Notes under the pieces: model-generated
Database searches by the model: none
Seen by the model: only the letters and a program-made list of their open reading frames with translations
What the model was told of the DNA's origin: nothing
Shown: positions 2 to 5,329 of the stretch, one piece after another
Position numbering within the stretch: position 1 is the first letter of the stretch
Layout of the letters: each line of letters opens with the position of its first letter
Assembly (NCBI GenBank): GCA_003250155.1
Contig: QKHE01000006.1
Location: 1-50,807, forward strand
Source: Chloroflexota bacterium
GTDB taxonomy: Bacteria; Chloroflexota; Limnocylindria; Limnocylindrales; CSP1-4
DNA: 50,807 nt
Reading direction: 5' to 3'
Translations under genes and position numbers: made by a program

Positions 2-439
2 GGCTGGCAGGCGCCGTTCCCGGTGCCGCACGTCGAGCTCGCGATCGACCCGGGCCGGCTCGGAATCGGCCTGCTGTTCGTCGTCGCGCTCGCGCCGCTG
101 ATCGGGACGCTGCTGTTCACCGCACCGATCTTCCTGCTGCGCAGCAGGACCCGCTGGTGGGTCGCCCTGATCATCGGCTTCGTGCTGTTCAACGTCGCCG
201 TCGGCGGCCTCGCGTTCCTGTGGGCGTACGTCAACTTCGACTGGGTGGCCGGCCTGTTCTGGTTCATCGGCAAGACGTTCGCGCTCGTCTTCGTCTTCGT
301 CTGGCTGCGCGGCACGCTGCCGCGCGTCCGGATCGACCAGCTGATGGGCTTCGCCTGGAAGTGGCTGCTGCCGGTCTCGCTGCTGAACCTGTTCGTCACC
401 GCCGTGGCCGTCATCGTCGTCGACGCGGTGGGGCGCTGA
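2..439 (+). CDS. nuoH: NADH-quinone oxidoreductase subunit H, C-terminal fragment. The 5' end lies left of the window.
   Basis: The frame is open from the window edge. The C-terminal signature [43 protein letters not shown] matches the conserved NuoH/ND1 tail (RxT.PR.R.DQLM..WK.LLP). The stop TGA at 437-439 overlaps the next ATG (ATGA). Confidence 0.9.
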
Positions 440-1197
440 TGAGCTTCCTGTCACAGCTCGTCCCGGGCTTCGGCATTGCCAAGGGCATGACCCTGACGCT
501 GAAGCGCTTCTTCGCGCCCAAGGCGACGATCAAGTACCCCGAGCAGAAGGCCGACGTCGCGGTCCGCTTCCGCGGCCGCCTCCAGCTGCTGTGGGACGAG
601 AACGGCCTGCTGAAGTGCGAGACCTGCTTCCAGTGCGCCCAGGCCTGCCCCATCGAGTGCATCGACATGGGCGGCCTGGATACGAAGGGCCGCTTCCACG
701 TTCACTGGGGCGCGCCCGAAACGTACGGCGAGCGGCGCGAGGAGTCGGCGCTGCGGCGGTCCGGCCGCGTCGTGCCCGATCCCGCGTACGACCACTTCGC
801 GGGCATCGACCTGGCGGCCGTCGACGAGATCCTGGCGCGCCACGACCACGATCCGGCCCGGATGCTGGCGATCTTCGAGGACGTCCAGGCGGCCTACGGC
901 CACCTGCCGGTCGCGGCGCTCAAGCGGATCAGCGAGACCACCGGGGCGTGGTACGCGATGCTGTACGGCACGGCCTCGTACTACCAGCACCTGCGCTTCG
1001 AGCCGCCCGACGCCGAGGGTCAAGCGGCCGCGACGGGCGCCCGCCGACCAGGCGAGGACGCCTACCTCGCGGCGCTCGGCGCCTCGCTCCGGGGCGGCGC
1101 GCCGTCCTCGCCGGACGCGACCGCGGCGGCAAGCTCGGCCGCGAACGGACCCGCGAACACGTCGCGGCCGTCGACGAAACGGCGGTCTGACGCGTGA
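439..1197 (+). CDS. nuoI: Atypical NuoI. It has a NuoI N-terminal half with only one CxxCxxCxxxCP motif, fused to a Cys-less NuoE-like N-terminal helical domain and an Ala/Ser/Pro-rich tail.
   Basis: The ATG at 439 overlaps the nuoH stop. The N-terminus LTLKRFFAPKATIKYPEQKADVAVRFRGRLQLL...CETCFQCAQACPIECI is NuoI-like (motif at 616-651). The second ferredoxin motif is absent. Residues encoded at about 808-1000 (VDEILARHDHDPARMLAIFEDVQAAYGHLPVAALKRISETTGAWYAMLYGTASYYQHLRF) resemble the N-terminal helical part of NuoE. There is no Cys after the first motif region. Confidence 0.8.
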   Translation: MSFLSQLVPGFGIAKGMTLTLKRFFAPKATIKYPEQKADVAVRFRGRLQLLWDENGLLKCETCFQCAQACPIECIDMGGLDTKGRFHVHWGAPETYGERREESALRRSGRVVPDPAYDHFAGIDLAAVDEILARHDHDPARMLAIFEDVQAAYGHLPVAALKRISETTGAWYAMLYGTASYYQHLRFEPPDAEGQAAATGARRPGEDAYLAALGASLRGGAPSSPDATAAASSAANGPANTSRPSTKRRSDA

Positions 1198-2552: not shown

Positions 2553-5329
2553 CCGACCTGATCACGCGCCCCGACGCCGCCTCCGACGCCGCTGACCCGG
2601 CCGACGCCGCGATCGTGCCGGTCGCCCAGCCCGCGGCGCCGACGGAGCGCCCGGACCGCCCCGCACGCCGCGACCGCCACGTGCGGCCCGATGGCTCGCC
2701 GGAAGCGCGTCCGGACGTCCCGGCCGTCCTGAGCACGGCCGAGCCCGTCGAGGACACGCACGCCGAGCGTCTCCTCACGACGCAGGCGCCGCAGCGGCCG
2801 CTGGCCACGCCGCCGATCCGGATCGAGGTCGACGGCCGGGTCGTCGAGGGCTTCGAGGGCCAGACGATCCTCGAGGTCTGCCGCGACAACGGCATCGAGA
2901 TCCCGACGCTGTGCTACGAGCCGAAGCTGCCCGGCTTCGGCGCCTGCCGGATGTGCGTCGTCGACGTCGAGGGCGAGGAGCACCCGCCGATCAGCTGCTC
3001 GCGGGCCGCCGAGGCCGGCATGAAGGTCCAGACGCAGACCGACGAGGTGCGGCGGCTGCGCCGGACGAACCTCGAGCTGATCTTCTCCGATCACAACGCC
3101 TACTGCCTGCCGCCCTGCCAGTTCAAGTGCCCCAGCCACATCGACATCCCGGGCTTCCTGAAGCAGAACGCGGAGGGCAACTTCCGGGAGTCGACCCGGA
3201 TCTTCAAGCGGACGATCCCGTTCCCGTCCGTCCTCGGCCGGGTCTGCCCGGCCCCGTGCGAGGAGCACTGTCGCCGCGACGAGGTCGACGAGGCGATCGC
3301 GATCCGCGACAGCCACCGCTACGCCGGCGACCAGGTCATCAAGGCGATGCTCGACGAGGACCTGGACCCGCCGGTGCCGTTCGAGGTCCAGGCCAAGACG
3401 GGTCGGCGGGTGGCCGTCATCGGCTCCGGCCCGGCCGGCATGGCCGCCGCCTACTACCTCCTGATCAACGGCCACGACGTGACCGTCCTCGAGCGCGACC
3501 CGGCGCCAGGCGGGATGCTCCGCTACGGCATCCCGCAGTACCGGCTGCCGAAGGTCGAGGTCCTCGAGGCCGAGTACGAGAGCGTCAGCCGCCTCGGCGG
3601 CAAGATCGTCTGCAACCAGGCGCTGGGTCGCGACTTCAGCCTCGACGACCTCCAGTTCCAGGGCTACGACGCGGTCGTCATCGCGATCGGCTGCTACGAC
3701 ACCAACAAGCTCGGCATCCCCGGCGAGGACGCCGCCGAGGTGCTCGACGGCCTCGAGTACCTGCGAACCGCCACGCTCGGCCTGCCGTACCCCGACCACG
3801 CCGGCAAGCGCGTCGTCGTCATCGGCGGCGGCTTCACCTCGATGGACTGCTCGCGGACCTCGATCCGCCAGGGCGCGGCGGAGGTCACGCTCGTCTACCG
3901 CCGCGACATGAAGGACATGCCGGCGGCCAACGAGGTCCACGAGGCGCTCGAGGAGGGCGTCACCGCGATCTTCCAGGCCGGGCCGACGAAGGTCATCACG
4001 GACGAGGCCGGCAACGTCACCGGGGTCGAGTTCATCCGGATGCAGCTGGGCGAGCCCGATGCCTCCGGGCGGCGGCGGCCGCAGCCCGCTCCCGGCACCG
4101 AGTTCGTCGTGCCCTGCGACCGGGTCCTGCTGGCGATCGGCCAGGGTCCCGAGCTCGACTGGGTCGGGCCGGGCTCGACCGGGGTCGGGCCGACGAAGAA
4201 CCGTCGCCTGCAGGCCGACGCGGTGACGTTCGAGACCGGGCGCCCCGGCGTGTTCGGGACCGGCGACGTCCGGATCGGCGCCGCGACGGTGGTCGAGGCG
4301 ATCGCCGAGGGCCGGCGCTGCGCCTACGCCGTCGACGCCTATCTCAAGGGCCGCGACCTGGCCGCGATCAAGACCCGCCAGACCCTGGCCGAGCCGCAGC
4401 CCGAGTTCCTGTCGATCGTGCCGTTCACCGCCGAGGTCAAGGAGCCGCGCTACCGGCTCAAGGCCCTCGACGCGGAGGAACGCCGCCACAGCTACGTGGA
4501 GTACGAGATTCCGTACTCCCGCGGCGAGATCGTCGCCGAGTCGACGCGCTGCCTGCAGTGCACCTGCGAGGCGATCGGCTACTGCGACCTGCGCCGCCTC
4601 GGGATCGAGTACGGCACGACACTCCAGACCCTCGAACCCAGGCACCACGAGGGCGCCGGCTACCGCAGCGTGACCGAGAACCGCTTCACCGGCATCAACC
4701 ACGACTACGTCCGCGACGATTCGCACGCCTTCATCCTGCGCGAGCCGTCGCGCTGCATCGACTGCGGACGCTGCGCCCAGGTCTGCTCGGAGGTCGTCGG
4801 CGCGGCGTGCTACGACTTCATGCGCATCGGCTTCGACACGCTCGTGACGACGCCGCTCGACATGAGCCTCAACGACACGCCGTGCGTGTCCTGCGGCCGC
4901 TGCGCCGAGACCTGCCCGACCGGCGCCCTGATGCCGAAGCCGCGCGTGCTGCAGAAGTACGAGGTCGACGAGAGCCGCTGCATCCTGTGCGGCATCTGCG
5001 TCGACGCATGCCCCTACGACGCGCTGCGTGACGGCGGCGAGTACGAGCTGACCCACGCCAGCCGGGCCGAGCCGATGATCGACCTCATGGCGCTCGCACA
5101 GCTGGATCGCGAGACCGAGATGACGTACGTCCGCAAGGAACGCGACTGGCTCCAGCGCGCGATGGCCGAGGGCCGCTACGTCGATGAGCGGCGGCTGCTG
5201 CCGGTCCTGCCGCCGTCGATGGCGTCGGGCGACGGCGACGGCGCGCCGACCGCGCGCCCGAACGAGGCGCCGTTCGATCCGCCCCGGATCGGGGCTGCGG
5301 GGACGCACCCGCACGCCCACCTGAAGTAG
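2549..5329 (+). CDS. Multidomain Fe-S flavoprotein. Its order is: NuoG/FdhA-type N-terminal [2Fe-2S] domain, GltD-like (glutamate synthase small-subunit family) FAD/NAD(P)H module, several 4Fe-4S motifs, and a NuoI-like C-terminal half. No molybdopterin-type domain is present.
   Basis: The ATG at 2549 overlaps the nuoF-like stop (ATGA). Motifs seen: 2Fe-2S [30 protein letters not shown]; GltD-type C..PPC...[11 protein letters not shown] and [12 protein letters not shown]; FAD site [17 protein letters not shown]; NAD(P)H site [16 protein letters not shown]; Fe-S motifs [39 protein letters not shown] and [16 protein letters not shown] (4979-5014). These are followed by [16 protein letters not shown], which resembles the NuoI C-terminus. 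Confidence 0.8.
   Translation: [926 protein letters not shown]

Follow-up and report, generated by a model that had tools for sequence, protein, structure and literature searches.

A nuoI Gene Split in Two by an Nfn/Stn-Type Module in the Complex I Locus of a Limnocylindria Bacterium

Introduction

How did the 11-subunit core of respiratory complex I gain an electron input module, and what feeds the complexes that lack NuoEFG? Both are long-standing questions, and forms with 11 and with 12 subunits have been described (PMC3144371). They are raised again by the nuo locus at the start of a 50.8-kb stretch of DNA (50,807 nucleotides, contig QKHE01000006.1; this whole stretch is called the window below) from a Chloroflexota bacterium of the class Limnocylindria. 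The slot of nuoI, from nuoH to nuoJ, is occupied there by three genes, which we call g1, g2, and g3, and the same is true of every related locus that is long enough to show it. The alignments presented here confirm, at the level of sequence, that nuoI is truly split and that its two halves are joined to different proteins of an inserted module. We give a probability of roughly 70% to the reading in which the two halves of NuoI are rebuilt in trans and the module, of the Nfn/Stn type, feeds the peripheral-arm core of a non-canonical complex I. The genes at the start of the window are as follows.

1–439, plus strand: nuoH, 3′ part (open reading frame [ORF] 23–439; the gene is truncated by the left end of the window)
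439–1197, plus strand: g1, 252 amino acids (aa), ATG start
1194–2552, plus strand: g2, 452 aa, GTG start
2549–5329, plus strand: g3, 926 aa, ATG start

The homologues of the window nuoH in related loci are PF00146 (NADHdh) genes lying directly 5′ of g1. A first-pass annotation, made from the letters of the window, had described the three genes as coupled by ATGA or GTGA overlaps at 439, 1194, and 2549. This is correct for the GTGA at 1194 and the ATGA at 2549, but at 439 there is a one-base overlap, TGATG.

Results

Two Halves of NuoI on Two Polypeptides

The protein g1 consists of the N-terminal half of NuoI followed by the N-terminal helical domain of NuoE/BfuC.

469–696, plus strand: NuoI N-half, g1 residues 11–86, with the NuoH-docking N-terminus and one CxxCxxCxxxCP motif
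679–768, plus strand: linker, g1 residues 81–110, DTKGRFHVHWGAPETYGERREESALRRSGR, no family match
805–1014, plus strand: NuoE/BfuC N-terminal domain, g1 residues 123–192 (PF01257 and PDB matches)

In profile searches, residues 11–86 align with positions 10–87 of the 180 of NF004536 (E = 4.8e-15), and TIGR01971 matches g1 over positions 1–62 of 121 with 50.8 bits; NuoI chains of PDB align with residues 13–87. The YPxxK...RFRG region, which in NuoI lies ahead of the first cluster motif, is present, and the motif itself, CETCFQCAQACP, lies at nucleotides 616–651. Its C60, C63, C66, and C70, as well as P71, are kept in 83/83 orthologues. Further along, residues 128–190 match PF01257 (NuoE), over the first 63 of its 145 positions only. 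The matches to NF004536, TIGR01971, and PF01257 bear out the first-pass annotation, which had seen in the first gene a NuoI that carries the first motif alone and then continues as a NuoE-like protein.

The other half is found at the end of g3.

4940–5179, plus strand: NuoI C-half, g3 residues 798–877, with the second NuoI motif at 4979–5014 and a NuoI-type tail

For the 129 residues of the g3 tail (798–926), NuoI models are the best matches in all NCBIfam, TIGR01971 being aligned over positions 72–116 of 121 (E = 4.8e-11, 42.3 bits). When the 144-residue stretch containing the three C-terminal motifs of g3 is considered, the first two motifs go to [FeFe]-hydrogenase/HoxU models and to PF22117, and the third goes to NuoI models. 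This motif-by-motif preference provides an internal control against generic ferredoxin similarity. It had been proposed that the last gene ends in the missing C-half of NuoI and that its preceding motif pair belongs to a dicluster of the NuoG/FdhA/hydrogenase type, leaving the final motif an orphan. Both proposals hold, the former through the match to the second half of TIGR01971, the latter through PF22117, the HoxU models, and the alignment with NfnA (9bov_A), by which the dicluster is of the hydrogenase/NfnA type. A self-contained polyferredoxin tail with three motifs was considered and is ruled out by these NCBIfam preferences and by the NfnA alignment. The cysteines of the NuoI-type motif (811, 814, 817, and 821) and the proline that follows are present in 61/63 orthologues, the two exceptions looking like artefacts of ORF boundaries or frameshifts, and residues 801–820 have an identity of 0.94 among orthologues.

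If g1 residues 1–80 and g3 residues 798–877 are joined, the result is collinear with residues 23–149 of 7ar7_I (E = 8e-22), as it is with 8e9g_I and 2fug_9, all of them NDUFS8/TYKY/NuoI chains. The sole gap in the PDB alignment is one of 5 residues at the junction. Aligned with intact NuoI, the halves tile the family; the break lies in the inter-motif loop, whose length differs from one intact NuoI to another. The fragments are thus contiguous halves of NuoI, as the profile positions in NF004536 and TIGR01971 and the PDB alignment agree; a profile comparison of this kind had been suggested as a check. Instead of two CxxCxxCxxxCP motifs within one polypeptide of ~140–200 aa, g1 and g3 carry one each, making eight cysteines together.

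The Inserted Module Resembles NfnABC and StnABC

What was inserted? Judging by its matches to proteins of solved structure, the insert is a relative of the NADPH-dependent transhydrogenase NfnABC/StnABC of the Bfu family. The first-pass annotation had called it a NuoE′/NuoF′/NuoG′-GltD module, which is right about an inserted input module, but the PDB matches make a pared-down Nfn/Stn-type Bfu module the better description. A relocated copy of NuoEFG was also considered and rejected, since for both g2 and g3 the scores against Bfu proteins exceed those against subunits of complex I. The marks of the canonical N-module, i.e., the N1a domain, the NADEGEP site, an N3 cluster with four cysteines, and, in the relatives, genes placed between nuoD and nuoH, are all missing.

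In g1, the best PDB matches of residues 123–190 are 9bov_C (NfnC) and 8oh5_A (StnA); we take 8OH5 to be the Stn complex of S. ovata. The [2Fe-2S] thioredoxin-like domain (C1/N1a), which characterizes BfuC, was not found in g1 by the Pfam scan, and the sequence has no Cys ligands past residue 70. The most conserved stretches of g1 are the Cys-motif segment (residues 61–80) and the linker (81–110), with 0.88–0.96 identity among 82 orthologues, and the linker would seem to be an interface element. Conservation is moderate at residues 191–220 (0.4–0.6 identity), and residues 221–252 (in the region 1015–1194 of the window) are rich in Pro, Ala, and Arg and essentially unconserved. The same composition and lack of conservation are found in the first ~60 residues of g3 (window 2549–2812), whose exact start is uncertain. 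These two unconserved segments are probably flexible tethers.

The protein g2 is a NuoF/BfuB-like flavoprotein core, with PF01512 and PF10589 in Pfam.

1461–1481, plus strand: altered flavin/nucleotide-site motif NGYGADP (canonical NADEGEP/NADEGDP)
2238–2258, plus strand: N3/B1 cluster motif CGK-T-IPC, second Cys lost; the fourth ligand, Cys395, is at 2376–2378

Its residues 19–433 have their best solved match in 8oh5_B (StnB; residues 110–526 of 584, E = 1.3e-98), followed by HydB and NfnB, all of which outrank every NuoF of complex I. Against TIGR01959 it scores 336 bits for a cut-off of 558.65, too low for a canonical NuoF. Neither the N-terminal thioredoxin-like domain nor the C-terminal 2x[4Fe-4S] domain of BfuB was found in g2 (no Fer4 in Pfam, and coverage of StnB limited to 110–526), so that the full set of a Bfu-family BfuB (FMN [flavin mononucleotide], B1, B2–B5, and the C-terminal 2x[4Fe-4S]) is not there. 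Within NGYGADP, the N, G, Y, and D are found in 69/69 orthologues and the other three positions in 65–68/69; the aligned position of StnB reads NADEGDP. The B1/N3 motif reads C-G-K-(T/S)-I-P-C in 66/66 orthologues, LCDHERL is invariant among them, and the CPxxxC (B2-like) end is retained, as in the NfnB core.

The protein g3 is an NfnA/StnC-like iron-sulfur flavoprotein in which the NuoI C-half stands in place of the Fdh-like C-terminal domain.

2813–3040, plus strand: [2Fe-2S] domain (A1/N1b-type), g3 residues 89–164 (PF13510, E = 1.9e-20)
3104–4351, plus strand: GltD/NfnL-like domain, g3 residues 186–601 (PF14691, PF07992), with two [4Fe-4S], flavin adenine dinucleotide (FAD), and NADPH sites
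4550–4585, plus strand: A3-like cluster motif, g3 residues 668–679, aligned with 9bov_A
4733–4930, plus strand: hydrogenase/NuoG-type dicluster (A2/A4-like), g3 residues 729–794 (PF22117, Fer4_Nqo3, positions 4–66 of 67)

Residues 90–821 align with residues 4–699 of 9bov_A, the NfnA of Caldicellulosiruptor saccharolyticus (Csac), with E = 2e-162; other PDB matches are 9n5u_A (also NfnA) and 8oh5_C (1,172 aa, E = 1e-140). The score against NF009454 is 553.8 bits, and that against TIGR01973 is 92 bits for a cut-off of 470, which does not make g3 a canonical NuoG, a protein with a molybdopterin-like C-terminal domain. It has the architecture of an Nfn-type BfuA, namely a HydA-like N-terminal iron-sulfur domain interrupted by an NfnL/GltD-like domain for FAD and NADPH. 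The FAD and NADPH motifs of the GltD-like domain are intact, including GGG.T.MD and YRR, which the 9bov_A alignment shows to be common to NADPH-using NfnA, and the domain has an identity of 0.93–0.95 among orthologues. Cysteines 122, 133, 136, and 150 are kept in 63/63 orthologues, as is the A3-like motif. The alignment also shows that NfnA uses the same two dicluster motifs for clusters of its own, and that g3 switches from NfnA-like sequence to the NuoI C-half where NfnA runs on toward its A5/Fdh-like domain. His256 of g3 (window 3314–3316) aligns with Lys170 of NfnA, and this His is invariant in a 38-sequence alignment. Lys170 of NfnA ligates the first [4Fe-4S] cluster after FAD (PMC11829005).

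The likeness to NfnABC/StnABC (PDB 9BOV, 9N5U, 8OH5; PMC11829005, PMC12018979) is therefore extensive but partial. The N-terminal and NfnL-like domains of NfnA are matched by g3 residues 90–797, which share the FAD and NADPH motifs and the motifs of clusters A1–A4, A6, and A7; g2 matches the NfnB core, and the C-domain of g1 matches the N-terminal domain of NfnC. In contrast, the Fdh-like domain with A5 is swapped for the NuoI C-half, and there is no C1, no thioredoxin-like domain of NfnB, and no B3/B4 ferredoxin domain; B1 is left with three cysteines, the FMN-site motif is changed, and the genes lie inside a nuo operon.

Recurrence and Conservation in Related Genomes

The same layout, nuoA-B-C-D-H-g1-g2-g3-J-K, was confirmed in at least 514 loci in a scan of species-representative genomes, where each species is represented by one genome, the counts are lower bounds, and the taxonomic labels follow the database entries. 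The loci listed are nearly all labelled Chloroflexota, Candidatus Limnocylindrales, or Limnocylindria. Metagenomes contain more than 2,887 homologues of g1 (the best 120 at 66–88% identity) and 6,177 of g3 (the best 120 at 81–91% identity). Among 80 fetched loci, all that are long enough have the order nuoH-g1-g2-g3-nuoJ-nuoK; L numbers below denote related loci. An assembly chimera had been named as a possible trap, and this recurrence of one gene order in at least 514 loci shows that the split is shared by related genomes. Frameshift, mis-assembly, or a chimeric contig mimicking a split is effectively refuted by it: in-frame gene fusions in some related loci might stem from long-read indel errors, but the three-gene layout with its start/stop overlaps, and thousands of metagenome proteins, come from independent projects.

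A spread across several phyla was considered and rejected, because the odd labels come nearly all from one catalogue of metagenome-assembled genomes (MAGs) and their matches have the same 65–77% identity as those of Limnocylindria. Patescibacteria, Binatia, Dormibacterota, and the other odd labels are thus probably label noise.

Upstream of g1, the relatives have nuoA-B-C-D-H, preceded in some by a gene for an NDUFAF7-like methyltransferase, and their NuoB keeps the N2 cysteines. No nuoE, nuoF, or nuoG, which in the canonical order would be placed there, was found between nuoD and nuoH in these relatives. The methyltransferase gene (PF02636) lies directly 5′ of nuoA (L001 4082–5254, L002 4481–5398, L004 2283–3569); in mitochondria, NDUFAF7 serves as an assembly factor, methylating one arginine in NDUFS2. 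In this lineage NuoH is long, 453–463 aa (L001 8613–10004; L004 6643–8004), with the 298-position PF00146 profile spread across ~380 residues, and NuoB has an N-terminal extension of ~100 residues (L004 4078–4857).

The fused frames mentioned above join g1 and g2 in L050 (8001–10031) and g2 and g3 in L002/L011 (1388 aa) and in L065 (8506–12612). Such fusions fit a single physical unit, but indel errors of long reads could also yield them. The fusion in L065 deletes the CPxxxC end of g2.

Divergent Lineages with the Same Split

A search of representative proteins recovers fusions of the NuoI N-half with NuoE down to ~26–39% identity, and both NuoI halves co-occur in every divergent locus with a readable last gene (L083, L085, L087, and L088). 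These loci differ in G+C content and in the distribution of domains.

L087, G+C 65%: layout of the window, but with a complete NuoE including the [2Fe-2S] cysteines
L085 (Chloroflexi MAG), 6481–17865, G+C 54%: nuoA-B-C-D-H-g1-g2-g3, N3 motif intact
L083, G+C 49%: nuoH, NuoI-N + full NuoE, thioredoxin-like domain + canonical NuoF + GltD, HoxU-like + NuoI-C, nuoJ-K-L-M-N
L088, 8392–13515, G+C 54%: stand-alone; nuoB-like gene (N2 cysteines intact), NuoI-N + NuoE-N, NuoF-like, NfnA-like + NuoI-C

In L083, nuoI is split in the same way and the domains of the module are distributed differently among the proteins; a protein search gave one close relative only of its HoxU + NuoI-C protein. In L085, the cassette is followed by genes for a flavin reductase, a small ferredoxin, and a pyruvate:ferredoxin oxidoreductase in place of nuoJ–N. 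No other nuo genes were found within 9 kb of the L088 cassette, which may either encode a soluble oxidoreductase based on NuoB and NuoI or belong to a nuo gene set that is dispersed. NuoB is the direct electron acceptor of NuoI, and it is the sole core subunit kept in this minimal cassette.

Discussion

A Proposed Role of the Split NuoI as Adaptor between Module and Core

We propose that the variable loop between the two cluster motifs of nuoI received an NAD(P)H dehydrogenase module of the Nfn/Stn type (Bfu family), and that the half-ferredoxins of g1 and g3 now pair. Sequence, synteny, and conservation taken together strongly suggest that the two halves assemble N6a and N6b in trans. An ordinary NuoI binds these two clusters and is placed between those on the NuoG side and N2 of NuoB. 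Each motif would give three cysteines to one cluster and its last cysteine to the other, and the paired halves would rebuild N6a and N6b on NuoH, NuoB, and NuoD. The NuoE-like domain of g1 would hold g2, as the N-terminal domain of NfnC does in NfnABC. With g2 held by g1 and the halves paired, the module would be tied to NuoI at two points, by two covalent tethers.

The electron path can be sketched from homology to NfnABC, where the electrons of NADPH pass along FAD-A7-A6-A3-A2-A1 to a bifurcation site [B1-FMN-C1], and A2-A4-A5 is a dead-end branch toward a vestigial Fdh-like domain (PMC11829005). In the complex proposed here, electrons would pass from NADPH to FAD, the two clusters of the GltD domain, the A3-like cluster, the A2/A4-like dicluster, N6a/N6b, N2 in NuoB, and finally quinone. 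The A2/A4-type dicluster, which immediately precedes the NuoI C-half in the g3 chain, would hand the electrons to N6a/N6b, and what is a dead-end branch in NfnABC would now lead out to N2 and quinone. With its GltD-like site intact, NADPH has the best support as donor; NADH may enter too, from the altered flavin site of g2 through B1 to the [2Fe-2S] cluster. Going further, one may tentatively picture, at somewhat less than even odds, a proton-pumping complex I fed mainly or solely by NADPH through a GltD/NfnL-type FAD site, which arose independently in evolution by insertion of a Bfu-type transhydrogenase module into nuoI, uses the split NuoI as a covalent adaptor, and serves the whole of the Limnocylindria, an abundant and uncultured class of soil and freshwater.

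Several observations weigh against this proposal. The joined halves score 96.6 bits against TIGR01971, under the cut-off of 113.05, and neither half alone reaches the NuoI family cut-offs. AlphaFold2 gave an unusable model of full-length g3 from an alignment of 38 sequences that are 85% identical (mean predicted local distance difference test [pLDDT] 35, predicted template modelling score [pTM] 0.27). The evidence for NADPH specificity consists entirely of motif conservation with NADPH-using homologues, and NADH input is made uncertain by the altered flavin site NGYGADP and the three-Cys B1 of g2. An intact nuoI or a canonical nuoEFG may lie elsewhere in these genomes, beyond the window and the related loci searched. 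Finally, L085 has no adjacent nuoJ–N and L088 lacks most nuo genes, so the cassette may also act outside a full complex I.

Alternative Readings

Could the complex bifurcate electrons? A confurcating or bifurcating "Nuo-Bfu" would use Bfu chemistry to couple the oxidation of NAD(P)H and ferredoxin to the reduction of quinone, or work in the opposite direction, yielding reduced ferredoxin or NADPH. The closest solved relatives of the module, NfnABC and StnABC, do bifurcate, and Nuo-Bfu complexes have been predicted by Schut et al. (PMC9304861). Some divergent loci (L083, L084, and L087) retain a full NuoE with its [2Fe-2S] cysteines, the thioredoxin-like domain of NuoF, canonical FMN motifs, or an intact N3, and of these features L085 and L088 retain the intact N3 alone. 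Yet the lineage of the window lacks C1, which belongs to the minimal site [B1-FMN-C1] as defined in PMC11829005, and the ferredoxin-reducing B3/B4; g2 also lacks the B5 domain, and its B1 is one Cys short in 66/66 orthologues. Because C1, B3, B4, B5, and one Cys of B1 are missing, bifurcation or confurcation is unlikely in the lineage of the window; among its relatives, L083 and L084 for example, it may occur.

It is improbable that the halves do not rebuild NuoI at all. An intact NuoI encoded elsewhere would then serve the complex, the half-motifs would be remnants or would bind otherwise (as a g1 homodimer, or with the third motif used within g3), and the module would be a co-transcribed soluble oxidoreductase. 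The search for an intact nuoI covers the window and the related loci, the Pfam model Fer4_7 can align g3 residues 779–825 as a dicluster, and L088 has the cassette without most nuo genes, all of which leaves room for this view. Against it, the eight cysteines and the NuoI-specific N-terminus and tail are strongly conserved in every lineage, and the genes occupy precisely the place of nuoI; neither the 50.8-kb window nor 1.14 Mb of sequence from related loci contains a further NuoI-like ORF. Moreover, in 9bov_A, the solved homologue, the second of these g3 motifs already has the first as its partner, and L088 keeps nuoB, the gene for the direct electron partner of NuoI. The intact NuoI representatives nearest to the N-half carry the names of other taxa and none is labelled Limnocylindria, which is weak evidence.

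Relation to Known Complexes

If the split NuoI does connect an Nfn-type module to the core, how does the complex compare with those already described? Relative to NuoI/Nqo9/NDUFS8 (TYKY; TIGR01971, PRK05888; PDB 4HEA, 8E9G, 7AR7), the NuoH-docking segment, both motifs, the tail, and the slot between nuoH and nuoJ are the same, but these features are on two polypeptides, with ~4.2 kb of inserted coding sequence between them and each half fused to another protein. Schut et al. (2022, PMC9304861) predicted Nuo-Bfu complexes for Geobacter, Planctomycetes, and Nitrospirae as well as Mbh-Bfu for Dehalococcoides, and Nitrospina and Kuenenia have NUO-2, which is complex I-like with a non-canonical input (PMC3578206). 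These systems resemble the one here in having a complex I-like operon with a Bfu-like input and not NuoEFG. They differ in that BfuABC replaces NuoEFG within the nuo cluster, with no split of NuoI reported, whereas here the module is inside nuoI. In these systems, BfuB still has its ferredoxin domains and the type of BfuA is other than GltD/Nfn, whereas the present module is Nfn-type and reduced; with BfuB and BfuC truncated, this is not a complete BfuABC within an otherwise standard 14-gene nuo cluster. The survey in PMC9304861 required the ferredoxin-type domain IPR017896 in BfuB, a domain that Pfam does not detect in g2.

The word NuoI does not occur in PMC9304861, and a split nuoI is not mentioned in the surveys of complex I gene clusters PMC3144371 and PMC4758237. 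We found no published description of a split or fused NuoI in the literature on NuoI, Limnocylindria, Dormibacterota, and Bfu. Compared with known complexes with a non-canonical input, the new features would be the two-polypeptide NuoI and an Nfn-type module bearing a GltD domain.

Other input modules that dock near NuoI are FpoF on Fpo and ferredoxin with NdhS/V/O on cyanobacterial NDH-1. There too, an 11-subunit core is fed at the NuoI end by a module other than NuoEFG, but the modules sit non-covalently on an intact NuoI-type subunit, whereas here the module is covalently linked to both halves of a split one.

The gene order itself suggests that a soluble module of the Nfn/Stn type was spliced into a ferredoxin subunit, and the arrangement is found in hundreds of species of Limnocylindria, a lineage widespread in soil and freshwater. 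If the proposal is true, this would be a natural 2x[4Fe-4S] ferredoxin fold built from two polypeptides and a second case, independent of the first, of how an N-module can be joined to complex I. The enzyme would also be a candidate for an NADPH-linked quinone reductase that conserves energy. In annotation pipelines, these genes receive the names "ferredoxin," "NAD(P)H-dependent oxidoreductase subunit E," "FAD-dependent oxidoreductase," or "formate dehydrogenase major subunit," and with such labels metabolic reconstructions can be expected to call nuoI missing and to misread the input module.

Surroundings of the Locus

The operon continues downstream of g3 with the genes of the membrane arm, as assigned from the ORFs and from the Pfam families of their homologues in L001 and L002.

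5333–5935, plus strand: nuoJ
5935–6252, plus strand: nuoK
about 6221/6278–8272, plus strand: nuoL
8272–9927, plus strand: nuoM
9924–11390, plus strand: nuoN

The G+C content of the window is ~72% throughout. A replication-origin gene set is found at 35322–42945, with recF, dnaN, and dnaA on the minus strand followed by yidC and jag on the plus strand, and with an intergenic region of ~400 bp at 40186–40588. The presence of dnaA, dnaN, recF, yidC, and jag indicates that the stretch is chromosomal and near the replication origin. The DnaA of the window is unusually long (707 aa), with an N-terminal extension of ~240 residues before the DnaA_N domain.

Between these two regions, an ORF of 1,775 aa (22155–27482, minus strand) has PMT and PMT_4TMC (protein O-mannosyltransferase) domains in its C-terminal third only, and its first ~1,000 residues have no family match. 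It is adjacent to a plus-strand cluster (16900–22139) of genes for a myo-inositol-1-phosphate synthase, a lipid-A-type acyltransferase, a PHP-associated protein, and a GT4 glycosyltransferase. This cluster can be likened to the actinobacterial genes for phosphatidylinositol-mannoside synthesis, here in a genome of Chloroflexota type.

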